Assembly: GCA_041497675.1 (NCBI GenBank)
Contig: JBGQGY010000109.1
Location: forward strand, 1-12,514
Direction: 5' to 3'
DNA length: 12,514 nucleotides
Origin: a bacterium
GTDB lineage: Bacteria > Sysuimicrobiota > Sysuimicrobiia > Sysuimicrobiales > Humicultoraceae
Made by a program: the position numbers and the translations under genes. Positions 1 to 12,514 of the stretch are shown one piece after another. A model generated the notes under the pieces. That model saw nothing but the letters and a program-made list of their open reading frames with translations, was not told the DNA's origin and did not search any database. Position 1 is the stretch's first letter. Every line of letters starts with the position of its first letter.

Positions 1-420
1 GCCCGCCGGCCCCGCGACTGGCCCGCCCTCGCCCACCCCGCCGGGTGCCGCGCCCTGTTGCTGCTGCCGGCCCCGCGACTGGAACTCCTGCCGGGCGACC
101 TCCAAGGCGGCCTTCTGCTCGGCTGTAAAGGTGTCCCGAATCGCGCGCGCGATAATGACTCCCGCGTCATCGGAAGCGGGCACGTCCTTGAGGGCCTTGA
201 TAAACGGCAGAATCTTCGCAATCTGCTCCTTGCTGAGCCGGGTCTCGTCCGTCCGCTCAACGGTCCGGATGGCAAAGAGCACGGTGAGCCCGGGATCCCG
301 CGGTCGTGGGGGCTCGGCGACCGGCTGGCCGCGCGTGTAGTACACGCCGCCCGCGGCCAGGACGACCGCGGCGGCAATGAGCCCCACCCACACCCAGCGC
401 TTCTTCGTTGCCACGTTCAC
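1..420 (-). CDS. Partial (3' end outside window) hypothetical membrane-anchored protein with two LTxxQ-like helical motifs and a Gly/Pro/Gln-rich segment
   Basis: Absent from the ORF track. Manual translation from GTG at 420 (alternative GTG at 414), 4 nt after the permease stop, is open for 140 codons to the window edge: MNVATKKRWVWVGLIAAAVVLAAGGVYYTRGQP...RLSKEQIAKILPFIKALKD...IRDTFTAEQKAALEVARQEFQSRGRQQQQGAAPGGVGEGGPVAGPAG. It has a basic N-terminus followed by one hydrophobic helix. Confidence 0.8.
   Translation of the reverse strand, partial: MNVATKKRWVWVGLIAAAVVLAAGGVYYTRGQPVAEPPRPRDPGLTVLFAIRTVERTDETRLSKEQIAKILPFIKALKDVPASDDAGVIIARAIRDTFTAEQKAALEVARQEFQSRGRQQQQGAAPGGVGEGGPVAGPAG
5..82. 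repeat. Perfect 17-bp direct repeat GCCGGCCCCGCGACTGG at 5-21 and 66-82
   Basis: Read directly from the sequence. The copies are 61 nt apart and lie inside the low-complexity part of the 1..420 ORF. Confidence 0.85.
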
Positions 421-424
421 CGCG

Positions 425-1636
425 CTACTCATGACGCAGGGCGACGATGGGATCAAGCCCCGCAGCCCGTCGCGCCGGGTACAGCCCAAAAAACACCCCG
501 ACGGCGACCGCAAATGAAAACGCCATGATGACGGCCTGCGCCGACAACAGGACCGGCCACCCCGCCGACTGGCTGATCACCCTCGACCCGACCACGCCAA
601 TCCCGATGCCGATGAGTCCCCCGGTCACGCTGAGCGCCACCGCCTCGACCAGAAACTGCAGCAGCACGTCCCGGCGGCGCGCTCCCACGGCCTTACGAAT
701 GCCGATCTCGCGCGTGCGCTCGATGACCGACACCAACATGATGTTCATGATGCCGATGCCGCCGACGATCAATGACACGGCGGCTACGCCGCCCAGCAGC
801 GTGGTCATCGTCTGCGAGACGCTCGTCAGCGCCTGCAGCACATCCGCCTGGTTGCGCACCTGGAAGTCGTTGTCCTGGTTGGGGGTCAGTTTGTGGCGCG
901 TGCGCAGGAGTTCGGTCAACGCCGTCTGCGTCTCCGCCATCTCCTCTTGCGACGCCACCTGCACGTTGATCGAGCGGACATACGTGACGCCGAACAACCG
1001 GCGCTGGGCGGTCGTCAGGGGGACAAAGACGATGTTATCCCGATCCTGGAACGCGGACGCCCCCTTCTCTTCCATCACGCCAACCACCGTGAAGGTAATG
1101 CCGCGGATCTTGATGGTCTGGCCGATCGGGTCGGTGTCGCCGAAGAGCTGGTTGATGACCGTGCGGCCGACGATCGCGATCTTGGCGCGTGACCGCATGT
1201 CGTCTTCGGTCACGAACGCGCCGCGCTCGACGCGGAAGTTGCGCACCGTCTGAAACTCGGGCGTCACGCCGTTGACCGGGGCGTTCGTATTCTGGTTTCG
1301 ATAGACGACTTGGACCGATCGGGCAAACTCAGAGCTCACACCGATGACACCGGGCACCTGGTGCCTGATCGCCTCCGCATCTTCGGTGGTCAGGTTCACG
1401 ACCTGATCGCCGCGCGAGACCCCACCGAAACTGGCGGTCCCGGCGAACACCGTGAGGAGGTTGCTTCCCAGCGCCTGTACCTGCTGCTGCACGTTCTGAC
1501 GCGCGCCCTGACCGATCGCCACCATTGCGACCACGGCGCCGACGCCGATGATCACGCCGAGCATGGTGAGCAGCGAGCGCAGCGGGTTGCTGGCCAAGGC
1601 CCGCATGGCAATACGAACACTCGCGCCCAGATTCAT
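425..1636 (-). CDS. MacB/FtsX-family (YknZ-like) ABC transporter permease
   Basis: 403 aa. N-terminal RSLLTMLGVIIGVGAVVAMVAIGQG, a large extracytoplasmic domain, C-terminal VGGIGIMNIMLVSVIERTREIGIRKAVGA and FFGLYPARRAAGLDPIVALRHE. ATGA overlap with the ATPase gene. Confidence 0.96.
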   Translation of the reverse strand: MNLGASVRIAMRALASNPLRSLLTMLGVIIGVGAVVAMVAIGQGARQNVQQQVQALGSNLLTVFAGTASFGGVSRGDQVVNLTTEDAEAIRHQVPGVIGVSSEFARSVQVVYRNQNTNAPVNGVTPEFQTVRNFRVERGAFVTEDDMRSRAKIAIVGRTVINQLFGDTDPIGQTIKIRGITFTVVGVMEEKGASAFQDRDNIVFVPLTTAQRRLFGVTYVRSINVQVASQEEMAETQTALTELLRTRHKLTPNQDNDFQVRNQADVLQALTSVSQTMTTLLGGVAAVSLIVGGIGIMNIMLVSVIERTREIGIRKAVGARRRDVLLQFLVEAVALSVTGGLIGIGIGVVGSRVISQSAGWPVLLSAQAVIMAFSFAVAVGVFFGLYPARRAAGLDPIVALRHE

Positions 1637-2343
1637 CGCGGTGGGCCTCCGGGGGCCACGACCTGGCGGTGCGCGTGGTCGTCGCGCACGATCCGCCCGT
1701 CGCGGAATTGGATGAAGCGCCGTGCGTGAGCGGCGATATCGGCTTCGTGCGTCACCATCACGATGGTGATACCCTTCCGCGAGAGGTTCTCCAGCAACAT
1801 CATGATCTCGCCTGAGGTCGTGGTATCCAGGTTGCCGGTTGGCTCGTCCGCCAGGATGATCGACGGCGACATGACCAGGGCGCGCGCGATGGCGACGCGC
1901 TGTTGCTCACCACCGGACAACTGCGTCGGCATGTGACCGGCGCGGGCCTTGAGGTTGACCGCCTCGAGGGCCCCCAGGGCCTTCGCCCGCCGGTCGGGCG
2001 TGCCGGCATAGATCATCGGGAGTTCGACGTTCTCTACCGCCGGGGTCCGCGGCAGCAGGTTGAACGACTGGAAGACGAACCCCAGGCGCTGGTTTCTCAG
2101 CCGAGCCAGGGCGACGTCGTCGAGGCGGGTAATGTCTTGACCTTCGAACAGGTACGTGCCGGCGGTCGGCCGGTCGAGCAGCCCGATGATGTTCATGCAG
2201 GTCGACTTCCCGGAGCCGCTCGGGCCCATGATGGCTACGAACTCGCCCGGTTCAATGGTCAGCGAAATCCCTCGCAGTGCGCGGACCTCGACGCCGTCCA
2301 TTCGGTAGACCTTCTCGACGTCGGTGAGCCGGATCAACGGCAT
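1633..2343 (-). CDS. ABC transporter ATP-binding protein, MacB/LolD/YknY subfamily
   Basis: 236 aa. Walker [21 protein letters not shown]-loop, signature [15 protein letters not shown], Walker B/D-loop [12 protein letters not shown]-loop VTHE. Confidence 0.97.
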
Positions 2344-2350
2344 CGGCGCG

Positions 2351-3826
2351 CTACCGACCTGCCGGCCGCCGCTGCTGGAACTGCGGCATGAAGGGGTTCA
2401 CCTGTTGGGGACGGCCGGTGCTGCCTCCCGGCTGGCGCGACGGGCCCAGATAGACCGTCTGCCCGACCTCGACGCCCTTGACGATCTCGACCTGGCGGCC
2501 ATCCGTGGCGCCCGTTTCGACGACGATCGGCGTGAGCGTCTCGCCTTCGACCAGGATGATCACCTTGGCGTCCTGGCCGCGCACCGCCTCCACGGGCACC
2601 AACAGCACGTTCTCGCGGCCCGTCACCACGAACTCGGCATCCACACCCATCCCGAGCCGCAGCGCCTCCTCGGGATGGTCGATCGCGACGATGACCTCGT
2701 ACTGCGTCACGTTCTGGATGACCTGGGACTGCGGCGCGATCCGGCGCACCTTGCCGCTGAACGTGCGGCCGCGCAGCGCATCGGCCGTGACACGCACCCC
2801 CATGCCGGTCGTGACCTTGGCGATGTCCGTCTCGTCGACCATCACGGAGGCCTGGATGATGCGGGTGTCGGCGAGCATCATGACGAGCGTCCCACCGCTG
2901 CTCACGCCGCCGATCACGTTCTGACCGACCTGCACCGACAGCTTGGACACGATGCCCGCGATCGGGGCGGTCACCTGAGTCTCGCGGAGCCGGTCCCGGG
3001 CCTGCTGCGCCAGGGCGGCCGCGTTGCGCACCTGGGCGGTCACGGCATCGACGTCGGCGGCAAGCACGCGCTCCTGGAGCACCGCGACGCGGGCCTGAGC
3101 AACGGCGGCTTCGGCCTCGCGAACCTGGGCGCGAACGACCGCGATGTCCTCTTGGGTGCTCCCCGTCTGCAACTCGCGCAGGCGCGCCTGCGCGGTGCTG
3201 ATCTGCGTCTGGGCCACGTCAAACTGCGTCTGCGCCTGCTCGAGCTGCGTCTTCGGCACCATACCGTCGCTGAAGAGCGTGCGCGCGCGGTCGAGGTTCT
3301 GACGCGCCAGGTTGAGGTTGACCTCGGCCTGCCGTACCACTTCGCGGGCCTGGTCGAGCTGCTCGGGCCGCGTGCCGGCCGTGAGCTGCTGGAACCGGGC
3401 GCGCGCCGTGGCCAGCGCCGCCTCTGTCTGCGCGATACGCGTGCGATTTTGGGCCCTCGTCGAGACCAGGGTGGCGCGTGACTGCTCAAGACGCGCCTGT
3501 GCCGCCGCCAGCGACGCCTGGGCGGTCTCGTATCCGGCCCGTGCGTCCCGGTCGTCGATGTCGAGCAACAGCGCGCCCTGCTTGACCCGATCGCCCTCCT
3601 GGACGTGTACGTCAACAACGGTCCCGGTCGCGCGTGACCGCACCTCAACTTGCGAGTACGGCTGCACGGCGCCGGTCGCCGTCACGCTCACGCTGATGTT
3701 GCCGCGCGTCACGCGCGCCGTCCGGAATGCCTCGGCCGCCGGCTGCGACGCCCTTCGCGTCCGGTAGGCCCATCCGCCGGCCACGACAAGCGCGATCACC
3801 GCCGCCACCACCAGAATGCGCTTCAA
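2351..3826 (-). CDS. HlyD/MacA-family periplasmic adaptor (membrane fusion protein) with extended alpha-helical hairpin
   Basis: N-terminal membrane anchor, lipoyl half-motifs GTVVDVHVQEGDRVKQGALL and VTAPIAGIV, beta-barrel motif VDETDIAKV, membrane-proximal LLVPVEAV...VETG. Start placed at TTG 3826 because GGAGGAG (3832-3838) lies 5 nt upstream; the ORF track uses GTG 3844. Confidence 0.93.
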   Translation of the reverse strand: MKRILVVAAVIALVVAGGWAYRTRRASQPAAEAFRTARVTRGNISVSVTATGAVQPYSQVEVRSRATGTVVDVHVQEGDRVKQGALLLDIDDRDARAGYETAQASLAAAQARLEQSRATLVSTRAQNRTRIAQTEAALATARARFQQLTAGTRPEQLDQAREVVRQAEVNLNLARQNLDRARTLFSDGMVPKTQLEQAQTQFDVAQTQISTAQARLRELQTGSTQEDIAVVRAQVREAEAAVAQARVAVLQERVLAADVDAVTAQVRNAAALAQQARDRLRETQVTAPIAGIVSKLSVQVGQNVIGGVSSGGTLVMMLADTRIIQASVMVDETDIAKVTTGMGVRVTADALRGRTFSGKVRRIAPQSQVIQNVTQYEVIVAIDHPEEALRLGMGVDAEFVVTGRENVLLVPVEAVRGQDAKVIILVEGETLTPIVVETGATDGRQVEIVKGVEVGQTVYLGPSRQPGGSTGRPQQVNPFMPQFQQRRPAGR

Positions 3827-3860
3827 CTGGGCTCCTCCGCGCACGACCGTCTACCCATTC

Positions 3861-4325
3861 TCAACGCGCGCCCACCGGGACCGGTTCCCGCTCCGGCGCA
3901 AACACGCCCCGGAGCGCTCGCATCGCCTGTGCCACCGTTGATCGCTCTGACGGGGTCAACCGGATCAGGACCGCGGCCAGGTAGTCCTCCGCCGCCCGCT
4001 GCGCCGCGTCGAGCGCCCCGCGCCCCGTCGCCGTCAGGGCCAGCGCCACGCGGCGTCGGTCGGTGGCGTGAGGTTGACGGCGCACCAGACCGCGCACCAC
4101 CAGCCCGTCGATCAACCGCGACACGGACGGGAGCGCGATCTCGAGATGTTCGGCGACGTCCGAGATCGACGCCCCCTCGTGCCGGCGCAGGAACATCAGT
4201 GTCCGAAGCTGTGGAATCGAAAGGTTGAGGCCGGTTTGCGACCGCAGGTGAGATCCCAGACCCCGCATCATCACCGGGACGGTTTGCAACACAACCCGCG
4301 CGCACTCCGCAGCAGAGGTGTCCAA
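3861..4325 (-). CDS. MarR-family transcriptional regulator
   Basis: 154 aa. LSIPQLRTLMFL...SISDVAEHLEIALPSVSRLIDGLVVRGLVRRQPHATDRRRVALALTATGR matches the MarR winged helix with the DRR motif. TTG start with SD AGGAGAGG at 4333-4340. Confidence 0.95.
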   Translation of the reverse strand: MDTSAAECARVVLQTVPVMMRGLGSHLRSQTGLNLSIPQLRTLMFLRRHEGASISDVAEHLEIALPSVSRLIDGLVVRGLVRRQPHATDRRRVALALTATGRGALDAAQRAAEDYLAAVLIRLTPSERSTVAQAMRALRGVFAPEREPVPVGAR

Positions 4326-4390: not shown

Positions 4391-4831
4391 CTACGAGTTG
4401 GACGCCGGCCGGCCCTGCAAAGTTGGGCGCTCGGGAGGATCCACCAGGACCACCGCTTCGCCCTCGAGGACGGTCTCATCGCGCTGGTTGACGCACGTGG
4501 TCCGGAGCCGCAACCGCCGCCGGGCCGCATCGTAGGACAGCACCTCGGCGGCGGCGGTGATAGTGTCGCCGATGCGGACGGGCTTGAGGAAGTTGAGGGT
4601 CTGGCTGATGTAGATGCCGCCGGGGCCTGGCAGCTGCATGCCGATGACGGTCGAGATCAAGCCGGCGGTCAGGATGCCGTGGGCGATGCGTCCGCCGAAG
4701 CGGCTGCGGCTCGCGAAGTCTGCGTCCACGTGCAGCGGGTTGACGTCGCCTGTAATCTCCGCGAATCCGGTCACATCGGCGTCGCCGATCGTCTTGGTGA
4801 ATGAGGCCCGCTGCCCGGCCGTGAACGTCAC
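4391..4831 (-). CDS. MaoC-family dehydratase, (R)-specific enoyl-CoA hydratase (PhaJ-like)
   Basis: 146 aa from GTG 4831, in a GTGA overlap with the upstream stop. Hydratase-2 motif FAEITGDVNPLHVDADFA with catalytic Asp/His, plus FGGRIAHG, LPGPG and FLKPVRIGD. The 300-aa ORF-track call is over-extended. Confidence 0.92.
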   Translation of the reverse strand: MTFTAGQRASFTKTIGDADVTGFAEITGDVNPLHVDADFASRSRFGGRIAHGILTAGLISTVIGMQLPGPGGIYISQTLNFLKPVRIGDTITAAAEVLSYDAARRRLRLRTTCVNQRDETVLEGEAVVLVDPPERPTLQGRPASNS

Positions 4832-5613
4832 CGCGCGGTCCATCCTCCGTCGATCGAGTGCGTGACCCCGGTGATCATACCCGCGGCGTCGCCCGAGAGA
4901 AACACCGCGAGCGCGGCCACCTCTTCCGGTTCGATCAGTCGCTTGATCGCGACCGGCGCCAAAAAGACGCGCTCCACGACGTCGGAGGCGGGCACGCCTT
5001 GCGCGCGCGCCACGTCGGCGATCTGCCCCTCCACGAGCGGCGTGCGCACGTACCCCGGACAGATCGCGTTCACCGTGATGCCGTACTCGCCCAGTTCCAG
5101 CGCGGCCACTTTGGTGAAGCCGACGATGCCGTGCTTGGCCGACACATAGGCGGACTTGAAGGGCGACGCAATCAGCCCATGGGCCGACGCGATGTTGATC
5201 ACACGGCCCCACCCTTGACGCGTCATGTGGGGCGCGGCGTGCTTCGTGCACAGGAAGGTACCGGTGAGCATGACGCGCAGCAGCAGATCCCACTTCTCCT
5301 CCGGATAGTCGGCGATCGGCGAGACAAACTGGAGACCGGCGTTGTTGACCAGGATATCAAGCCGGCCGAAGTGGCGCGCCGTGGCGTCGACCATCGACCG
5401 TACGGAGGCGCCGTCCGACACATCCGCCGTAATCGCGTGCGCGCGCCCGCCTCCGCGCGTGATCTCTCCCGCAACCGCCTGCCCCCGCCCTGCGTCCATG
5501 TCGGCGACGCAGACACCGGTGCCCGCCTCCGCCAGCGCGAGCGCAATCGCCCGGCCGATGCCCGACCCCCCGCCGGTGACGATCGCCGCCTTCCCACTCA
5601 GCGTGCCGGTCAT
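4828..5613 (-). CDS. bdhA: D-3-hydroxybutyrate dehydrogenase (classical SDR)
   Basis: 261 aa. TGGGSGIG, NNAGLQ, SAHGLIASPFKSAYVSAKHG (YxxxK plus the Gln/His/Lys substrate residues typical of HBDH), ICPGYVRTPLVEGQI, C-terminal DGGWTAR. GGAGG SD upstream. Confidence 0.9.
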   Translation of the reverse strand: MTGTLSGKAAIVTGGGSGIGRAIALALAEAGTGVCVADMDAGRGQAVAGEITRGGGRAHAITADVSDGASVRSMVDATARHFGRLDILVNNAGLQFVSPIADYPEEKWDLLLRVMLTGTFLCTKHAAPHMTRQGWGRVINIASAHGLIASPFKSAYVSAKHGIVGFTKVAALELGEYGITVNAICPGYVRTPLVEGQIADVARAQGVPASDVVERVFLAPVAIKRLIEPEEVAALAVFLSGDAAGMITGVTHSIDGGWTAR

Positions 5614-5635
5614 GTGATCCTCCGTGTCTGGCCCG

Positions 5636-6361
5636 TCACAGTCCCAGGTAGGCCTGCCTGACGTGATCGTTCTTCAAGAGGTCGGGGCCGGTCCCTTCGA
5701 GCACGATCCGCCCGTTTTCCAGCACATAGCCTCTATGAGCCATCGCGAGCGTCTGGCGCGCGTTCTGCTCGACCAGGATGATCGTGGTGCCCGCACGGTT
5801 GACCTGCCGCAGGGCGTCGAAGACCGCGGCCATGAGCACAGGCGCCAAACCCAGCGACGGCTCGTCAACCAGGAGCATCGTCGGGCGTGCCATCAGCGCC
5901 CGCGCGATGGCCAGCATCTGTTGCTCGCCGCCGCTCATCGTGCCTGCAACCTGATGCTGCCGCTCGCGCAGACGCGGGAAGAGATCGAACACGGCCTGCA
6001 TCGTCTCCCCGCGGCGCTCCCACGCGCCGGGGACAAAGGCCGCGCCCAGTTCGAGGTGCTCGAGCACCGGCATCGCGGGGAAGAGTTGCCGGCCCTCCGG
6101 GACATGCGCGATCCCCATCCGCGCAATGGCCGCGGGCGACCGCCCCGCGATCAGGCGATCGCTGAAGATCACGCGGCCGGCGGGTCGCACCAGGCCTGAG
6201 ATCGCACGCAACAGTGTGGTCTTCCCCGCGCCGTTCGCGCCGACCAAACAGACGATCTCGCCCCGGTCGACGTGGAACCCCAGGTCCCACAGCACCTGCA
6301 CACGGCCGTACCCGGCGTTGAGGCGTTCGACACGGAGCAGGGCGCGGTCAGGAGCCACCAC
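5636..6361 (-). CDS. livF: HAAT-family ABC transporter ATP-binding protein, LivF-like
   Basis: GANGAGKTT, HVPEGRQLF, MSGGEQQMLAIARALM, VDEPSLGLAP, LVEQN, VRQAYLGL. Start placed at GTG 6361, 6 nt after GGAGG (6368-6372). The symbol denotes the family, not proven amino-acid transport. Confidence 0.94.
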   Translation of the reverse strand: MVAPDRALLRVERLNAGYGRVQVLWDLGFHVDRGEIVCLVGANGAGKTTLLRAISGLVRPAGRVIFSDRLIAGRSPAAIARMGIAHVPEGRQLFPAMPVLEHLELGAAFVPGAWERRGETMQAVFDLFPRLRERQHQVAGTMSGGEQQMLAIARALMARPTMLLVDEPSLGLAPVLMAAVFDALRQVNRAGTTIILVEQNARQTLAMAHRGYVLENGRIVLEGTGPDLLKNDHVRQAYLGL

Positions 6362-7088
6362 TTGCGCCCTCCGGACCGAGATACGCTTCAATCACCGCCG
6401 GGTCGCGGGCCACGGTGTCAAATGGGCCTTCGGCGATCTTGCGTCCGAAGTTCAGCACCGTCACGCGGTCGGCAAGATCGCGCACGCCGCTCATGACATG
6501 ATCGATCAGCAGCACGGTCACCCCCGCCGTCCTGATCCGGCGGATCATGTCGACCGCCCGCGCCGCTTCGGCGGGAGTCAAACCCGCCATCACCTCATCG
6601 AGCAGCAGCAGTCGGGGGTGCGTGGCCAGGGCGCGCGCGACCTCGAGCCGCTTCAGGTCGGCGACGCCCAGCTCCGAGACGTCCCGGAGCATGAGGTGGG
6701 CGATCGCGACGAGATCGCAGACGGCCTCGGCGTCCCGGCGCGCCGCGGCGGTCGACTTCGGTGTCGTATGGCCGAACAGCTCGCCGACCATCACGTTCTC
6801 CAGCACCGTCATGTCGTGGAACGGCTGCATCAACTGAAAGGTCCGGCCGATGCCCAGACGGGCGCGTTCGTGGGGCTTGCGCGTCGTGATATCGACATCG
6901 TCGAACAGGACGCGTCCAGAATCCGGTGGTGTCAGACCCGAGATAACATTAAATGTCGTCGACTTGCCGGCCCCGTTGGGACCGATCAGCGCCAGAATCT
7001 CGCCCTGACGCACCTCGAGCGATAAGTCGTCGATCGCGACCAGCCCGCCGAAGGCTTTGGTGACGTCGATCAGCGTCAGGAGGCTCAC
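6348..7088 (-). CDS. livG: HAAT-family ABC transporter ATP-binding protein, LivG-like
   Basis: KAFGGLVAI, GPNGAGKST, GIGRTFQ, LLLLDEVMAGL, DPAVIEAYLG. Start placed at GTG 7088 (GTGA overlap with the livM stop). Confidence 0.94.
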   Translation of the reverse strand: MSLLTLIDVTKAFGGLVAIDDLSLEVRQGEILALIGPNGAGKSTTFNVISGLTPPDSGRVLFDDVDITTRKPHERARLGIGRTFQLMQPFHDMTVLENVMVGELFGHTTPKSTAAARRDAEAVCDLVAIAHLMLRDVSELGVADLKRLEVARALATHPRLLLLDEVMAGLTPAEAARAVDMIRRIRTAGVTVLLIDHVMSGVRDLADRVTVLNFGRKIAEGPFDTVARDPAVIEAYLGPEGASGGS

Positions 7089-8017
7089 GAGCCGCCGCCG
7101 CGCCGCCGCATCGACGCCCACAGACCGACCAGGCCTCGCGGGAGATACAGGATGACGATCGCCAGAATGAGCCCGTAGATGATGAGGTAGCCGCTGCGAA
7201 ACTTGGTGCGCAGGATCTCCTCGCCGACGCGCAGCACCGCGGCGCCCACCAGCGGCCCGACCGTGCTGTACAACCCGCCGAAGATGGGCGCGACCAGGGC
7301 GCCGACCGAGGTCGCGATGCTGAACGCTTCAAACGGGTTGATGAACAGGAAGACGTGGGCGTAGAACGCGCCCGCGAGCCCCGCGAACGCCGCGCTGATC
7401 GCAAACGCCACGACCTTGAACCGGACGACGTCCACGCCCATCGCCCCGGCCACTTCCTCGTTGGTGCGGATGGCGGTAAAGGCGAAGTACCAGCGCGAGC
7501 GGTTGATGCCCCATGAGACCGCGACCGCCGCGACCAGGATCGCCAGGATCACGAGATACTGCGCCAGGAGGCTGCCCCCCAGCAGGGGTGGGACGATGAG
7601 ACCGGACGACCCGCCGGTAAAGCGCACCTGCTTGGCAATCACCCGCAGCGTCTCGCTGAACGCCAGCGTGGCGATCGCGAAGTAGATGCCGCGCAACCGC
7701 AGCGTCAGCACACCGAGCGCCGTGGCCGCGATCGCGGCGACGAGACCGCCGGCCGCGATGCCGAGGGCGACAGGCAGCTGTGCGAGTGTGACCAACAGCG
7801 CCGACGCGTAGGCGCCCAGCCCGAAGAACGCGGCGTGCGCGAGCGACAGCTGGCCGGTGCGCGCCAGCAGATCCCATGACAGCGCGAGCACGGCAAAGAT
7901 CAAGATATTGAGCGCGAGCTGCAGATAGTAGGGGTGCGCGCGGCCGGCCCAGAATGGGAGCGCCACGGCCGCCGCGAGCAGCGCTGCCAGCGTGACACCG
8001 GCGCCCGCCCGCCGCAT
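7085..8017 (-). CDS. livM: HAAT-family ABC transporter permease, LivM-like
   Basis: ALSWDLL..TGQLSLAHAAFFGLGAY, LRLRGIYFAIATLAF, AIRTNEEVAGAMGVD, multiple hydrophobic helices. ATG 8017 overlaps the livH stop (TGATG); GTG 8020 is an alternative start. Confidence 0.94.
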   Translation of the reverse strand: MRRAGAGVTLAALLAAAVALPFWAGRAHPYYLQLALNILIFAVLALSWDLLARTGQLSLAHAAFFGLGAYASALLVTLAQLPVALGIAAGGLVAAIAATALGVLTLRLRGIYFAIATLAFSETLRVIAKQVRFTGGSSGLIVPPLLGGSLLAQYLVILAILVAAVAVSWGINRSRWYFAFTAIRTNEEVAGAMGVDVVRFKVVAFAISAAFAGLAGAFYAHVFLFINPFEAFSIATSVGALVAPIFGGLYSTVGPLVGAAVLRVGEEILRTKFRSGYLIIYGLILAIVILYLPRGLVGLWASMRRRGGGS

Positions 8018-8913
8018 CACGACTGGAACAGCCCCTTGGGTCGCATCAACAGCACCACCAGGATGAGCAGGAAGAACACACCCTCAGACCATCCACCACC
8101 CTGCGGCACGTAGAACTCGACAAACGCTTCGGACAGCCCCAGCACCAGGCTTGCGTAAATCACGCCGTTGATGTTGCCGAGCCCAGCCATCACGATGATG
8201 GCAAACGCCTTCAGCGTGTAGAGCAGGCCGATGAACGGCGACGTCGAGAGTTGCAGCGTGACCATCATCCCGGCAACGCCGGCGAGCGCGCAGGCGAGCC
8301 CGAAGGTCAGCAGGTAGATGCGATCGACCTCGATGCCGATGAGACTCGCGCCGACGCGGTTCTGCGCCACGGCACGCATCGCTTTGCCCAGGCGCGACCG
8401 GCCCAGCACCAGATAGAGCCCCAGCACGAACGCCATCGCCAGCGCGAAGACGATCAGTTGCGGCAGCCCGACGACGAGCGGGCCCAGCGGGACGGCGGTC
8501 GCTTTGTACGGCACCGCCGCGGTACGCGGGTCGCCCGTCCACAAGATAATGGCGAGGTTTTGGAGGAAGATCGAGATGCCAAACGTGAGCAGCATTTGGT
8601 TCAGTTCGGGCGCGCGGAGCACGCGCTGGATACCCGCCCGATAGACGACGCCGCCGATCGCGAACAACGCCGCTGCGCCGATCGGGATGGCCAGCAGCGG
8701 ATCGATCCCGTACGACACGAACAGCCAGTACCCGAGATAGGCGCCCAGCATCAGGAACTCTCCGTGGGCGAAGTTCACGATTCCGATCACGCCCACGGAG
8801 AGCGCGAGCCCCACCGAGGTCAACGCATAGAGCCCCGAGCGGAGCACCCCGAAGACCAGCATCTGGGCGAGGTCTTGGATAGCGTCCCCCGTCTGCGCGC
8901 CGTCCTGCGGCAC
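8017..8913 (-). CDS. livH: HAAT-family ABC transporter permease, LivH-like
   Basis: YALTSVGLAL..GVIGIVNFAHGEFLMLGAY, SRLGKAMRAVAQN, AFAIIVMAGLGNING, LLMRPKGLF. Exact start uncertain. Confidence 0.94.
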   Translation of the reverse strand: MPQDGAQTGDAIQDLAQMLVFGVLRSGLYALTSVGLALSVGVIGIVNFAHGEFLMLGAYLGYWLFVSYGIDPLLAIPIGAAALFAIGGVVYRAGIQRVLRAPELNQMLLTFGISIFLQNLAIILWTGDPRTAAVPYKATAVPLGPLVVGLPQLIVFALAMAFVLGLYLVLGRSRLGKAMRAVAQNRVGASLIGIEVDRIYLLTFGLACALAGVAGMMVTLQLSTSPFIGLLYTLKAFAIIVMAGLGNINGVIYASLVLGLSEAFVEFYVPQGGGWSEGVFFLLILVVLLMRPKGLFQS

Positions 8914-8924
8914 GCCGCCCGAGA

Positions 8925-10127
8925 CTACCGGCCGTACGGCGCCGGATACGCGAGCTTGCCCCCCGCGATCTCAGTCGGGTAGACGACGACCTGTTTGCCG
9001 CTGACCCACTGGAACGCGATCAATTTCGTGAAGCCCTGGTTCTTCCCGTAGATCGACCGCTTGAAGGTGAGGGGCAGACCGATCGGGCCATCATACTCGG
9101 TGGCCTTCATGGCGGCGGTGAGCGCGTTCAAATCGGTGCTACCCGCGCGACGGATTGCCTCCGCGACGGTAAACAGGTTCGTGTACGCGAGCGGCCCCCA
9201 GTACGATGCGGGGTCCTCGTTGAACTGTTCTCGGTACCGTTGCACGAAGCGGCGTGAGGCGGCATGGCTATTCTCCGCCGTCCACAGCGCCATCCCGGCG
9301 ACGTTGTTGCCCGCCGGCAGTTTCTCGAAACCGACCGGCCACGACGGCGGCGCGGCCAGGATCAATTTGGGATTGAAGGCGACCTGCCGTGCCTGCGTGA
9401 CCATCGGCACGACGTCCTGGTCAAAGCCCACGAACACAAAGACATCGGCCCCGGCGCCCTTGGCCTTCGACAGCAGGGGTGTGAGGTCGGGCGAGCCGGT
9501 CTTGAACGCCTCCTTAAAGATGACGCTCAGGCCGTAGTTCCTGGCAAACGCCTCGGCCTGATCGGCCGACCCGCTGCCAAACGGACCGTCCTCATAGGCC
9601 AGCGCCACGGTCTTCGCGCCGGTACTGCGGATGAATCCATAGGTCGAGTCCGCGTTATGGTACTCCCACGGATGATAGTGGAAGAACCAATCGGCATCCG
9701 CCAGGGCGCGCTCGACGAGGCTGGAGGCCGCACCGGTCCACGCCATCAGGATCGGTCGCTGCCGCGCCTGCGCCGCCACGGCGATCGACACGTTCGACTG
9801 CAGCCCACCGATCAGCACGTCGATGCGGTCGCGGGTCACGAGCTTCAGAAAGGCCGCGGCGCCGGTCGGGGGATCGCCACGGTCGTCCTCGACGATCAGC
9901 TCGACCCTGCGGTTGAGCACCCCGGTCCGGTTGACTTCCTGCAGCGCGAGTTGATAGCCCTTCTGCATCGCCTGGCCGCTGGTCCCCGACGGCCCGGTCA
10001 AGGGCACGATGGCGCCGATCTTGATCGGCTCACGCTGGGCCAGCGCGGGTTGATGGGCTGCGATCAGCAGCAGGACGGCGGCAATCGCAAGTCCGACCGC
10101 GCCGCGTGTGGTGAAGATCCCCTTCAT
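8925..10127 (-). CDS. HAAT-family (LivJ/K-like, type I fold) ABC substrate-binding protein
   Basis: Signal peptide MKGIFTTRGAVGLAIAAVLLLIAAHQPALA|Q, then PIKIGAIVPLTG, VELIVEDDRGDP, AEAIRRAGSTD. Start placed at ATG 10127, 7 nt after GGAGG (10135-10139). Confidence 0.93.
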   Translation of the reverse strand: MKGIFTTRGAVGLAIAAVLLLIAAHQPALAQREPIKIGAIVPLTGPSGTSGQAMQKGYQLALQEVNRTGVLNRRVELIVEDDRGDPPTGAAAFLKLVTRDRIDVLIGGLQSNVSIAVAAQARQRPILMAWTGAASSLVERALADADWFFHYHPWEYHNADSTYGFIRSTGAKTVALAYEDGPFGSGSADQAEAFARNYGLSVIFKEAFKTGSPDLTPLLSKAKGAGADVFVFVGFDQDVVPMVTQARQVAFNPKLILAAPPSWPVGFEKLPAGNNVAGMALWTAENSHAASRRFVQRYREQFNEDPASYWGPLAYTNLFTVAEAIRRAGSTDLNALTAAMKATEYDGPIGLPLTFKRSIYGKNQGFTKLIAFQWVSGKQVVVYPTEIAGGKLAYPAPYGR

Positions 10128-10159
10128 GATCATCCCTCCCTGTGATGGACGTTGCGCGA

Positions 10160-10951
10160 TCACGCGTTCAGAAACTCGACGAGCATCCGGTTGGCTTCGT
10201 CGGCGTATTCCCAGAGAAACAGGTGCCCGGCGTCTGGGAACACGTGCACTCGTGCGCCGGGAATCCGGGCGGCCATCAAATGTGCGTTGCCGACAGGAAC
10301 GACGCGATCCTGACCGCCGTGGAGGATCAGTACGGGCATGCGTAACTGACCGAGCCGCGACTCGGTGTCGTGATCTGCCGTCGCCGCCAGCTGGCGCTGG
10401 AACGCCGGCAGCGGTTGCGGGTGCGCGACGCGCCAGGCCATGTACTCGTCCAGCTCCTGAGCGTGCACCTGCGGATAGTCGGTGCCAAACTGCACCCGAA
10501 GAAACCCCCGCAGGTCATGGGTCGGATCGCCCGTGCGGCTCTGCAGCAAGGCGACGGTATCCTGAGGAATGGGAACGCTGTGCGGGCCACCAAACGCCGT
10601 GCAGCACAGGATCAATTTTCGAACATGGTAGGGATAGGCCAACGCGAACTCCTGCGCGATCGCACCGCCCATCGACGCGCCGACCACGTGCGCCGCCGAA
10701 ATGTGCACACGATCCAGCAAGCCGGCCAGGTCATCGGCCATCGTCCGTATCGCGTAGGGCTCGTCGGGCGCATCAGTCCGGCCGGCGCCGCGGTTGTCGG
10801 GCGTGATGACCTGGAACCGTACCGCAAGGACCGGCGCCTGCTTGTACCAGAGGTGCCCGTCCGATCCCAGCCCGCCGATGAGCAGCAGCGGCGGGCCTTC
10901 CCCGTGGGCCTCGTAATACATCGTGATGCCGTTGGTCTGCGCGTAGGGCAT
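10160..10951 (-). CDS. Alpha/beta-fold serine hydrolase (PcaD/enol-lactonase-like esterase)
   Basis: 263 aa from ATG 10951 (TGATG overlap with the upstream stop). GPPLLLIGG, DNRGAGRTD, nucleophile elbow GASMGG, acid in HGGQDRVVP, histidine in DAGHLF. No signal peptide. Confidence 0.92.
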   Translation of the reverse strand: MPYAQTNGITMYYEAHGEGPPLLLIGGLGSDGHLWYKQAPVLAVRFQVITPDNRGAGRTDAPDEPYAIRTMADDLAGLLDRVHISAAHVVGASMGGAIAQEFALAYPYHVRKLILCCTAFGGPHSVPIPQDTVALLQSRTGDPTHDLRGFLRVQFGTDYPQVHAQELDEYMAWRVAHPQPLPAFQRQLAATADHDTESRLGQLRMPVLILHGGQDRVVPVGNAHLMAARIPGARVHVFPDAGHLFLWEYADEANRMLVEFLNA

Positions 10952-12471
10952 CACGCGGTCACCTGCTCCCGCAGGACGCGTTTCAGCACCTTGCCCGCGG
11001 CGTTGCGCGGCAGCACGTCCACAAACGCGACCGATCTGGGGATCTTGTAGCGCGCCAGCCTGCCATCGCAGAATGCCACGAGGTCCTGGGCCGTCAGTCG
11101 CGCGCCGGGTTTGAGGACGACGATCGCCCGTGGCGCTTCTCCCCACTTCTCATGCGGGACGCCGATGACCGCCACGTCGGCGATGGCCGGATGCCGGTAG
11201 AGGACGTCCTCGATTTCCGCCGGATAGATGTTCTCGCCGCCGGAGATCATCATGTCCTTCTTCCGGTCGACGATATAGATGAAGCCTTCGGTATCGATCC
11301 GCGCCAGATCGCCGGTCTTGAACCAACCGTCGCTGAACGCTTGGGCCGTCGCGTCGGGCCGCTGCCAGTAGCCGGAGAAGAGATTGGGGCCGCGGGTCCA
11401 CACCTCGCCGGTGCCGCCGGGCGGCACGTCTCGGCCGTCGTCATCAACGACGCGCACCTCGACGTGCATCGCGGCCTTCCCGGCTGATCCGGCCTTCCGG
11501 AAGGCATCGGCCGCAGGGATCAGCAGACACGTCGGCGCAGTCTCGGTGAGACCATACCCCTGTTGAAAGAGCAGACGCCGCTCGCGGAATGCCTCGATGA
11601 TCGTGAGCGGACACGGTGCGCCCCCGCAGGAAAATCGGGTGCGGCTGAGGTCCGCCCCGCGGAACGCTTCCGAAGCCAGCAACGCCAGATAGATCGCCGG
11701 GACACCAAACATCGCCGTCACACCATGACGCGCGATGAGACGCGTTGTCTCCTCGGGATCAAACTCGCGCTGCAAGATGGCCGTTGCGCCGTGGTGCACG
11801 CTCGGCAGCGTGAACAATCCGATGCCGCCGGTGTGGAACATGGGAAGGAGGTTCAACGTGACGTCGGCGGATGTCAGATCGATTGAGGTCCCGATGTTCA
11901 CGCTGTTCCACAGTTGGGTCGCCTGCGTAAGCACTGCACCCTTTGGCCGGCCGGTCGTGCCGGCCGTGTACATGATGAGCAACGGATCGTCAAACCGACC
12001 CTCCGGGGGCGTTGCTCCACCCTGGAGCAGCGCAGCGTAGGGCTCAGCCCACGGCACCCGCGGTCCGTCGCCATCGAAGCCCACGAATGTCTCGATCGTC
12101 TGCGCTTCCGCCCGCGTGCGGACGGTATTGGCCAACTCGAACAGGTGTTGGTCGACGAGCAGGACTTTGGGCCCGCTGTCTCCGAGCTGGAAGGCCACTT
12201 CGGGCGCGGAGAGCCGCCAATTGAGTGGGACGGCGATGGCGCCCAAACGCGCGGCGGCAAACAACGCTTCAACGTACTCGGCGCGGTTCATGGATAGGAT
12301 CCCCACGCGGTCCCCACGCACGACGCCGCGCGCGCGCAGACCCGCGGCGACGGCCGCCACTCGGTCGCGTAGCGCCAGATACGTCACAACGCGCTCGCCG
12401 TCAACGAGTGCGGGTTTGTCCGGGTGGATGTCGGCGCGCCGCTCGAGCCAGTGCCAGATCCCCCACATCAT
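10951..12471 (-). CDS. Acyl-CoA synthetase / AMP-dependent ligase (FadD/MenE-like, ANL superfamily)
   Basis: 506 aa. P-loop YTAGTTGRPKG, LPMFHTGG, GYGLTET, GWFKTGD, DRKKDMMISGGENIYPAEIE, catalytic Lys in LPRNAAGKVLK. Confidence 0.95.
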   Translation of the reverse strand: MMWGIWHWLERRADIHPDKPALVDGERVVTYLALRDRVAAVAAGLRARGVVRGDRVGILSMNRAEYVEALFAAARLGAIAVPLNWRLSAPEVAFQLGDSGPKVLLVDQHLFELANTVRTRAEAQTIETFVGFDGDGPRVPWAEPYAALLQGGATPPEGRFDDPLLIMYTAGTTGRPKGAVLTQATQLWNSVNIGTSIDLTSADVTLNLLPMFHTGGIGLFTLPSVHHGATAILQREFDPEETTRLIARHGVTAMFGVPAIYLALLASEAFRGADLSRTRFSCGGAPCPLTIIEAFRERRLLFQQGYGLTETAPTCLLIPAADAFRKAGSAGKAAMHVEVRVVDDDGRDVPPGGTGEVWTRGPNLFSGYWQRPDATAQAFSDGWFKTGDLARIDTEGFIYIVDRKKDMMISGGENIYPAEIEDVLYRHPAIADVAVIGVPHEKWGEAPRAIVVLKPGARLTAQDLVAFCDGRLARYKIPRSVAFVDVLPRNAAGKVLKRVLREQVTA

Positions 12472-12478
12472 CGAGGGC

Positions 12479-12514
12479 TCACCACTGGATGACCGCGGCG
12501 GCCCACGTGTAGCC
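12479..12514 (-). CDS. C-terminal fragment of a probable FabH/KAS III-like (3-oxoacyl-ACP synthase III family) protein
   Basis: The minus strand reads GGC TAC ACG TGG GCC GCC GCG GTC ATC CAG TGG TGA = GYTWAAAVIQW*, resembling the GxTWxAxxxxW end of KAS III enzymes. The stop is 7 nt before the ligase ATG. Only 11 residues are visible. Confidence 0.6.
   Translation of the reverse strand, partial: GYTWAAAVIQW

Follow-up and report, generated by a model that had tools for sequence, protein, structure and literature searches.

A Liv-type ABC importer operon with 3-hydroxybutyrate dehydrogenase, PhaJ-like hydratase and KAS III-like genes in the CSP1-3 phylum: a candidate uptake system for short 3-hydroxy acids

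Polyhydroxybutyrate (PHB) is among the most abundant microbial storage polymers, and the uptake of its breakdown products is barely characterised. Schroer et al. (2023; PMC10130141) call hbtABC of Ruegeria pomeroyi (SPO2571-2573), a set of three genes, the sole bacterial system confirmed to take up 3-hydroxybutyrate (3HB). Here we analysed a stretch of 12,514 bp (hereafter the window) from a metagenome-assembled genome (MAG) of the CSP1-3 phylum, which carries a five-gene Liv-type ATP-binding cassette (ABC) importer in one operon with acyl-CoA and 3HB genes. hbtABC is dedicated to 3HB uptake, a role that is putative for the window system; the two differ in gene number, three genes against a five-gene HAAT ABC system. 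We tentatively propose, with somewhat less than even confidence, that the operon imports and consumes an external short (R)-3-hydroxy acid, likeliest (R)-3HB or short 3HB esters or oligomers derived from the PHB of other organisms.

The window importer has the same five components as the LivJ/K-HMGF systems of the HAAT family (which we take to be TC 3.A.1.4), namely a Peripla_BP_6 protein, two BPD_transp_2 permeases and two ATPases, one of them with BCA_ABC_TP_C. However, its substrate-binding protein (SBP) is only distantly related to named or solved members, lacks the acidic residue of a G-[DE]-G motif, and is encoded among acyl-CoA and 3HB genes. In Rhodopseudomonas palustris, CouPSTU, encoded with couAB, and the transporter of the pim cluster are HAAT carboxylate importers located beside CoA ligases. 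The window follows the same logic, a Liv-type organic-acid importer encoded beside a processing CoA ligase and a hydratase, but its SBP is of a different subfamily and the partners are BdhA, a PhaJ-type hydratase and a protein resembling 3-ketoacyl-acyl carrier protein synthase III (KAS III-like) rather than an enoyl-CoA hydratase/lyase. With the PHB cycle and ketone-body catabolism, in which BdhA works with ScoAB or acetoacetyl-CoA synthetase (AacS) and a thiolase, the window shares a BdhA over its family cut-off, and related importers in Deinococcus neighbour bdh and scoAB; the window genome has a FadD-like ligase, PhaJ and the KAS III-like protein in place of ScoA/AacS. No ABC importer for 3HB or its oligomers was found in the titles and abstracts of matching literature, a search that lay mostly outside subscription journals and is not proof of absence, and a full-text literature search found no paper on this gene combination. 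The passages of PMC9038784 and PMC12542648 that were examined contain nothing on 3HB transport.

Gene content and protein families of the operon

The window is an entire contig (C109) of the MAG (3.97 Mb, 272 contigs, 98.6% complete), with a G+C content of about 67%. Protein families were assigned by Pfam and NCBIfam scans of the window proteins, and signal peptides were assessed by eye. The original prediction described a co-oriented, tightly packed run from a KAS III-like tail through a ligase, a hydrolase and the importer to 3-hydroxybutyrate dehydrogenase (BDH) and MaoC genes, and every one of these was found on the minus strand in its place. At the contig end lie the last 11 codons (GYTWAAAVIQW) and the stop codon (12480-12482) of a KAS III-like gene of the NF005308 family (12480..12514, minus strand, as are all genes of the operon), which is cut by the contig end. 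This stop is followed after 8 nt by the start of an AMP-forming acyl-CoA ligase of 506 aa (10951..12471), which overlaps by 1 nt an alpha/beta-fold serine hydrolase of 263 aa, predicted to be cytoplasmic (10160..10951; Abhydrolase_1, 127 bits). The SBP, predicted to be periplasmic or extracytoplasmic (8925..10163; Peripla_BP_6, PF13458, 219.5 bits), likely starts at ATG 10133 or 10127, just ahead of the signal peptide, which leaves a gap to the hydrolase of 26 or 32 nt, respectively. After 11 nt come a LivH-type permease (8017..8913; BPD_transp_2, PF02653, 132.9 bits) and, overlapping it by 4 nt, a LivM-type permease (7085..8020; BPD_transp_2, PF02653, 118.3 bits). If the starts of the longest open reading frames (ORFs) are taken, the genes for the LivG-type ATPase (6348..7121; ABC_tran, PF00005, with BCA_ABC_TP_C, PF12399) and the LivF-type ATPase (5636..6391; ABC_tran, PF00005) begin 37 and 44 nt, respectively, inside the gene upstream of each. 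A gap of 22 nt separates LivF from a short-chain dehydrogenase/reductase (SDR) of 261 aa, a BdhA-family (R)-3-hydroxybutyrate dehydrogenase (4828..5613), and this gene overlaps by 4 nt the last member, a PhaJ-like (R)-specific enoyl-CoA hydratase of the MaoC type (4391..4831; 146 aa; PF01575, 81.6 bits). Such an arrangement exceeds chance, as the order recurs in related loci.

The SDR scored over the curated BdhA cut-offs (TIGR01963, 342.9 vs 307.05 bits; NF009093, 328.9 vs 258 bits) and matched solved D-3-hydroxybutyrate dehydrogenases at 246-251 bits. Alignment to the Pseudomonas fragi enzyme (1wmb; numbered by hand) showed that the equivalents of Q94, S142, H144, K152, Y155, K159 and Q196 are conserved. 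We take Ser142, Tyr155 and Lys159 of that enzyme to be catalytic and Gln94, His144, Lys152 and Gln196 to bind the substrate carboxylate; because this carboxylate-binding set is conserved, the residues argue for a free acid rather than a CoA ester as the substrate. The original assignment as a 3-hydroxybutyrate dehydrogenase thus stands, and the protein is, judged by family score and conserved residues, a genuine BdhA-family member. It is also the sole BDH over the cut-off in the window genome. The hydratase assignment of the MaoC protein was likewise borne out: its best matches in the PDB were the (R)-specific enoyl-CoA hydratases (PhaJ) 5cpg and 1iq6, and its translation contains FAEITGDVNPLHVDADFAS (...ITGDVNPLH...), presumably the Asp/His motif that defines hydratase-2 proteins. 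A faint match of 22.7 bits to 3-aminobutyryl-CoA ammonia-lyase was also observed.

The ligase contains AMP-binding and AMP-binding_C domains (PF00501 and PF13193) and scored 523.6 bits with NF004837, a fatty-acid-CoA ligase subfamily with a cut-off of 476. Its best PDB match was an entry named 'feruloyl-CoA synthetase / fatty-acyl-CoA synthase' (408 bits), followed by FadD5 and FadD13. TIGR01217, the AacS family, did not appear in the top 25 of the 106 families that this ligase matched. Across the window genome, no AacS over the TIGR01217 cut-off was detected (best 385 vs 521 bits, on another contig) and no ScoA-family match was found; thiolases are present. The operon ligase therefore has a possible job in activating acetoacetate and/or 3HB, and we regard it as a candidate for the CoA activation of 3-hydroxybutyrate, acetoacetate or a different short acid. 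The hydrolase, in which a GASMG serine nucleophile motif can be read from the translation, fell under every NCBIfam cut-off, with PcaD (3-oxoadipate enol-lactonase) as the best model (155 vs 256 bits) and the esterase Est1 as the best PDB match (191 bits). No signal peptide was seen by eye at its N-terminus (MPYAQTNG...). 'Est1' and 'feruloyl-CoA synthetase' are PDB molecule names only (PDB codes 6EB3 and 8WEV), and no relevant literature was found under those codes.

All five HAAT components are present in the importer (two PF02653 permeases and two PF00005 ATPases, the LivG-like one also with PF12399), and the SBP combines Peripla_BP_6 with a signal-like N-terminus, MKGIFTTRGAVGLAIAAVLLLIAAHQPALAQ. 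The Liv and Urt equivalog models scored far under their cut-offs throughout the transporter genes: 76 vs 477 bits for the SBP with the LivJ-type model NF011933, 272 vs 441 bits for the LivF-like ATPase with the LivF model, and about 190 bits, under the cut-offs, for the LivG-like ATPase with the LivG and UrtD models. The SBP is distant from solved structures (best PDB match 82 bits as a single sequence and 126 bits as a six-sequence profile), the nearest of which carry Leu/Ile/Val-binding annotation. Where the amino-acid-binding structures 3td9, 4n0q, 4gnr and 3ip5 (about 25% identity) show G-[DE]-G, the SBP has AAPP, and A-A-P-P-S-W-P is invariant across its subfamily, which also shares the motif FHYHPW.YHN. 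As the acidic residue of G-[DE]-G presumably holds the alpha-amino group in LivJ, its absence would speak with moderate force against an amino-acid ligand.

Conservation of the operon and its binding-protein subfamily

The gene order recurs in 12 related loci that we mapped and in 18 loci from CSP1-3 found in the subfamily scan described below. TetR, KAS III-like, ligase, hydrolase, SBP, LivHMGF, BDH and MaoC genes follow one another in the 12 mapped loci, with some losses: the hydrolase is missing at L028 and L032, BDH at L024, and BDH together with MaoC at L025, and at L026 BDH is found farther off, about 4.7 kb downstream of the final transporter gene. In a survey of 94 species genomes of the phylum, an orthologue of the SBP was found in 22, and NF005308 was also found in 22 (20 over the cut-off). 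Twenty-one genomes have both; the two that do not are the window genome, whose KAS III-like gene is cut at the contig end, and one genome that is 78% complete. BDH was present in 53 of the 94 genomes, 51 over the cut-off, and the sole BDH was located within 10 kb of the SBP on the same contig in 16 of the 22 SBP-bearing genomes. These counts include two unpublished genomes, G010 and G019 (apparently loci L067 and L061), and the conclusions are independent of both. Synteny in other genomes, on which the original prediction depended, therefore holds, in the 12 mapped loci and, for BDH, in the 16 genomes; BDH is a frequent but dispensable member of the operon.

To follow the SBP subfamily outside the phylum, species-representative genomes were scanned with the two most conserved peptide patterns, which recovered at least 54 loci that were mapped by tblastn with the window proteins and extra queries. 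A 3HB/PHA (polyhydroxyalkanoate) marker was found at 30 of the 54. Deinococcota account for 21 of the loci, which are without the KAS III-like gene, the ligase or MaoC. These loci carry a divergently transcribed MetX-like esterase-type hydrolase (18/21) and a hydrolase of 350-365 aa between the SBP and the permease (11/21), for which the best NCBIfam model was the intracellular short-chain-length (scl) PHA depolymerase (106 vs 300 bits); two of the linked hydrolases have this model as their top match, under the cut-off. The flanking genes are either scoAB, just upstream, or, downstream, a large regulator and then bdh. The product of this bdh is 51-53% identical to that of the window; the one scanned scored 312 bits with TIGR01963, and its gene is followed by one for ScoA (TIGR02429, 260 bits). 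Within the stretches examined, bdh and/or scoAB was present at 15 of the 21 loci, and of the six loci with neither, four are on contigs 2.5-6.3 kb long. A paralogue control in four Deinococcus genomes covered 40 Peripla_BP_6 genes, of which only the four subfamily members are near the single BDH-family gene. The distance is about 8-9 kb in two genomes, in which this gene scores over the cut-off, and about 11-12 kb in the remaining two, in which it reaches 302-304 bits against 307. In three of the four genomes a ScoA gene is found 2-9 kb away from the subfamily member.

PHA synthase genes bear on whether the carriers make the polymer or scavenge it. A class III PhaC-like gene follows BDH or LivF at L062, L067, L068 and L071 (twice at L071) in CSP1-3 relatives, and another is located just upstream of the operon at the Limnocylindria locus L075. 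The PhaC-like proteins scored 280-284 bits against a cut-off of 365, and at L068 a PhaR-like gene comes after the PhaC-like one. PF07167 and TIGR01836 gave no PHA synthase match in the window genome or in four Deinococcus carriers, and tblastn with a PhaC-like protein found none in the window genome. By eye, no signal peptide was seen in any of the linked hydrolases examined, and the SBPs have one. Since no synthase was found, the hydrolases are apparently cytoplasmic and the SBPs are exported, an ester or free hydroxy acid from outside would be the simplest reading, and 3HB would be exogenous in carriers without a synthase match. The missing synthase in the tested carriers fits scavenging, and the putatively cytoplasmic hydrolases fit the import of an ester.

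Other genes were also observed near the operon. Downstream of MaoC, on the same strand and after a 65-nt gap, lies a block at window 425-4325 (minus strand) with genes for a MarR regulator, a MacA-like adaptor, a MacB-type ATPase and an FtsX-type permease, and its synteny extends to several genera of this family (L027, L033-L035, L063, L081, L082, L085 and L100). An ORF of at least 171 aa at window 1-513 (minus strand), with a predicted transmembrane start and no Pfam or NCBIfam match, is kept after the MacB permease in relatives at 47-63% identity. On the other side of the operon, directly upstream of TetR, genes for a CoxS/M/L-type molybdenum hydroxylase (2Fe-2S, FAD and MoCo subunits) were found at L027:14548-18233, L030, L033:4800-5276 and L034:14460-14948. 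In Sinorhizobium, bdhA presumably shares an operon with xanthine-dehydrogenase-like genes, and the position of the molybdenum hydroxylase next to this operon may be coincidence. At L033:2670-4643, in one genus of the family, a divergently oriented acetate-CoA ligase gene (NF001208, 669 bits against a cut-off of 657) is located about 0.7 kb upstream of the start of TetR; a small 2Fe-2S gene separates the two.

The KAS III-like family and related modules in Bacillota

The original prediction of a KAS III-like gene upstream of the ligase was only partly verifiable in the window, which has 11 codons of it, and the identity of this stub rests on orthologous loci, where a full-length KAS III-like gene (333-337 aa, ending ...GYTWAATAIRW) is located directly upstream of the ligase. 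The orthologue at L027:12666-13667 contains ACP_syn_III and ACP_syn_III_C, the fold families shared with FabH/KAS III, and scored 441.6 bits with NF005308 (PRK06840; cut-off 315); FabH models scored far under their cut-offs on these orthologues. Members of NF005308 are named just '3-oxoacyl-ACP synthase' in public records. We aligned the best 120 homologues together with 10 sequences derived from the loci and compared them with the Cys-His-Asn triad of FabH. Unlike in FabH, the position of Cys112 is Ser in 126 of the 130 sequences and Cys in four, and that of Asn274 is His in all 130. A Cys two residues past the nucleophile position is found in just 93, and an [HF]-x-K-R-S motif is nearly invariant. 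The family thus lacks the canonical condensing-enzyme triad and probably does not have a condensing role; a nucleophile interchangeable between Ser and Cys suggests acyl transfer rather than condensation. DpsC, which we take to be a precedent for a Ser nucleophile in the KAS III fold, was not among the PDB matches.

A KAS III-like protein, a hydrolase, an AMP-forming ligase and an SDR also brought to mind Ole-type olefin/beta-lactone synthesis (OleA/B/C/D). This reading was set aside without a direct family test; the ligase scores over an acyl-CoA-ligase cut-off, the SDR over a BdhA cut-off, the KAS III-like protein lacks the Cys, and an importer lies inside the operon.

No NF005308 member was found in 14 control genomes, and 32 of 401 sampled Bacillota genomes have one over the cut-off. 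The neighbourhoods of 20 of these Bacillota genes were examined. In 16 of them, Liv-type ABC genes with another SBP (19-37% identity) lie within 10 kb; MaoC is present in nine, and a hydrolase 42-49% identical to that of the window in eight. A protein of about 430 aa from the acetyl-CoA hydrolase/transferase family, an assignment confirmed for all seven proteins scanned with Pfam, is often found in place of the ligase; for the two scanned against NCBIfam the best model was butyryl-CoA:acetate CoA-transferase (291-313 bits, cut-off 675). Sigma-54 activators are common in these loci. The window operon is therefore one variant of a widespread, uncharacterised module of an importer with KAS III-like acyl-CoA genes. 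The C4-type CoA-transferases hint at short acids, and as the SBPs vary, substrates may differ between the variants. At L150, L151, L153, L156, L161, L163 and L167 the KAS III-like gene adjoins the CoA-transferase gene. These clusters, of an uncharacterised type, often also carry Liv-type ABC genes, a sigma-54 activator, a FabG-type SDR and another, divergent KAS III-like gene. An NHL-repeat beta-propeller protein of 621-639 aa is encoded inside the module at L148:10935-12800 (Bacillus-like) and L108:7968-9887 (Peptococcaceae).

Candidate substrates and the meaning of the operon

Conserved residues and synteny, family membership and gene content are observed, and the route that follows, with 3HB as the substrate, infers the ligand, what the ligase and hydrolase act on, and which way the flux runs. 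The secreted SBP would hand the substrate to the LivHMGF-type importer and, if it is an ester, the cytoplasmic serine hydrolase would release the monomer. BdhA would convert free 3HB to acetoacetate, the operon ligase would form the CoA thioester of acetoacetate and/or 3HB, and the PhaJ-like hydratase would turn (R)-3-hydroxybutyryl-CoA into crotonyl-CoA, so that both branches would reach acetyl-CoA. Two or three independent associations with 3HB/PHA genes, the paralogue control, the missing synthases, the presumed cytoplasmic esterases and the missing amino-acid signature lend real comparative support to the scavenging of 3HB, and the butyryl-CoA:acetate-type CoA-transferase that takes the place of the ligase in Bacillota adds C4 chemistry in its favour.

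A number of observations weigh against this proposal, whose case remains one of guilt by association. The closest characterised relatives of the ligase use feruloyl and fatty acyl substrates. The hydrolase, which the original prediction had placed in the breakdown of 3HB oligomers or esters, reached no cut-off of a known PHA-depolymerase or oligomer-hydrolase family (TIGR02240, 90 vs 250.6 bits; NF050089, 73.6 vs 300 bits), and its Pfam scan returned generic alpha/beta-hydrolase families only, without the 3HB-oligomer-hydrolase family (which we take to be PF10605); this lowers the claim of a known depolymerase, not the claim that the protein hydrolyses 3HB esters. The KAS III-like gene and the ligase, rather than BDH, accompany the importer most strictly (21 of the 22 SBP-bearing genomes), and this best-coupled KAS III-like gene has no step in the 3HB scheme. 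BDH was not seen beside the importer in six of the 22: the complete genome G028 has no BDH, in G014 BDH is on a different contig from the operon, which is whole on an 84-kb contig, and in G018, G087, G010 and G019 the contigs are too short to place BDH relative to the importer. Of the 53 genomes in the phylum with a BDH, 32 are without this SBP. No 3HB/PHA marker was found at 24 of the 54 subfamily loci, including all seven from Bacillota/Peptococcaceae, the full-length loci of a deltaproteobacterium, a spirochaete and two Deinococcaceae, and the Smithella, Thermoleophilaceae and Gemmatimonadales loci. At E <= 1e-60, no BDH-family match was found in three of four Bacillota/Peptococcaceae genomes, and that in the fourth (218 bits) is under the cut-off; the SDRs of the Bacillota module are FabG-type and not BdhA-type. 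In BDH-less relatives the scheme fails as written, and a route from 3HB-CoA through MaoC to crotonyl-CoA must be assumed there. The Deinococcus loci are kin and count roughly as one event. The survey of SBP neighbourhoods upheld the predicted co-occurrence with the KAS III-like gene and, in 16 of 22 genomes, with BDH, and showed 3HB/PHA markers at 30 of the 54 subfamily loci. For the uptake of 3HB or its oligomers as a whole, the SDR, the MaoC protein, the synteny and the links to bdh, scoAB and PhaC-like genes stood; the KAS III-like gene without a role and the BDH-less relatives did not fit.

A different view is that the importer supplies an uncharacterised acyl-CoA pathway of a more general kind, built around the KAS III-like protein with a ligase or CoA-transferase, a FabG-type or other SDR, MaoC and the hydrolase. 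The substrate would then be another short or medium carboxylate (for example enoic, branched or aromatic), and BDH a lineage-specific addition. We consider this a substantial possibility, albeit a doubtful one. It accounts for the joint presence of the KAS III-like gene, the ligase and the SBP in all but one of the SBP-bearing genomes, for the recurrence of NF005308 in the sampled Bacillota beside Liv-type systems with other SBPs (16 of 20 loci), MaoC (9/20), hydrolases (8/20) and FabG-type SDRs, and for a ligase that is nearest to feruloyl- and fatty-acyl-CoA synthetases and passes a fatty-acid-CoA ligase cut-off. A hydroxycinnamate substrate, raised by the feruloyl-CoA synthetase match, found no support from any other gene and was merged into this view. 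A pathway centred on the KAS III-like protein nevertheless leaves unexplained why the SBP is associated with bdh and scoAB in Deinococcus, where the KAS III-like gene and the ligase are absent, why PhaC-like genes are inserted into the operon, and why the sole BDH is kept in the operon in 16 genomes; moreover, the C4 butyryl-CoA:acetate type of the Bacillota CoA-transferases still points to C4 acids.

PhaJ is a supplier of PHA monomers, and the operon might instead serve storage, with an imported or endogenous 3-hydroxy acid activated to its CoA ester, PhaJ supplying the monomer, PhaC polymerising it, and the hydrolase and BDH mobilising the polymer. The PhaC-like genes between BDH or LivF and MaoC (L062, L067, L068 and L071) or beside the operon (L075), the PhaR-like gene at L068 and this role of PhaJ would suit such a function. 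Yet the window genome keeps the operon without a PhaC match by two families and tblastn, the four Deinococcus carriers also lack one, and the PhaC-like genes, all under the cut-off, occur at only 5 of 54 loci, one of them from an unpublished genome, so that we regard storage as improbable. Still less probable, in our judgement, is an ordinary importer of branched-chain or other amino acids, possibly beta-amino acids, that merely lies beside lipid-type genes. All five transporter genes do match Liv/Urt-type Pfam and NCBIfam names, the nearest solved SBPs are annotated as Leu/Ile/Val-binding, and the faint ammonia-lyase match of MaoC would suit a beta-amino acid; but the equivalog scores lie far under their cut-offs (76 vs 477 bits for the SBP), the acidic residue of the four aligned amino-acid-binding structures is missing, the synteny with CoA-ligase, hydratase and BDH genes is kept across phyla, and Pfam and NCBIfam scans found no amino-acid catabolic gene in the operon.

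A further-reaching form of the 3HB proposal, which we think rather unlikely, is that the SBP subfamily with FHYHPW.YHN represents the first ABC uptake system for 3HB or its oligomers or esters in organisms that do not make PHB (CSP1-3 and Deinococcus), with dedicated cytoplasmic esterases and a Ser-nucleophile acyltransferase of the KAS III fold acting with the ligase on 3HB-derived (thio)esters; the latter would be an activity undescribed for that fold. If 3HB is indeed the ligand, this link between a Liv-type importer and bdh, sco and pha genes, seen in two unrelated phyla, would provide a metagenome marker for the scavenging of 3HB or its oligomers, would explain how non-producers feed on PHB necromass, and would correct many annotations as 'branched-chain amino acid transporter'. 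Whatever the ligand, the module of KAS III-like, ligase or CoA-transferase, MaoC, SDR and hydrolase genes with a HAAT importer, found in CSP1-3, in Limnocylindria and in 32 of the 401 Bacillota sampled, constitutes an uncharacterised pathway whose core is an unusual Ser-for-Cys KAS III-fold enzyme.

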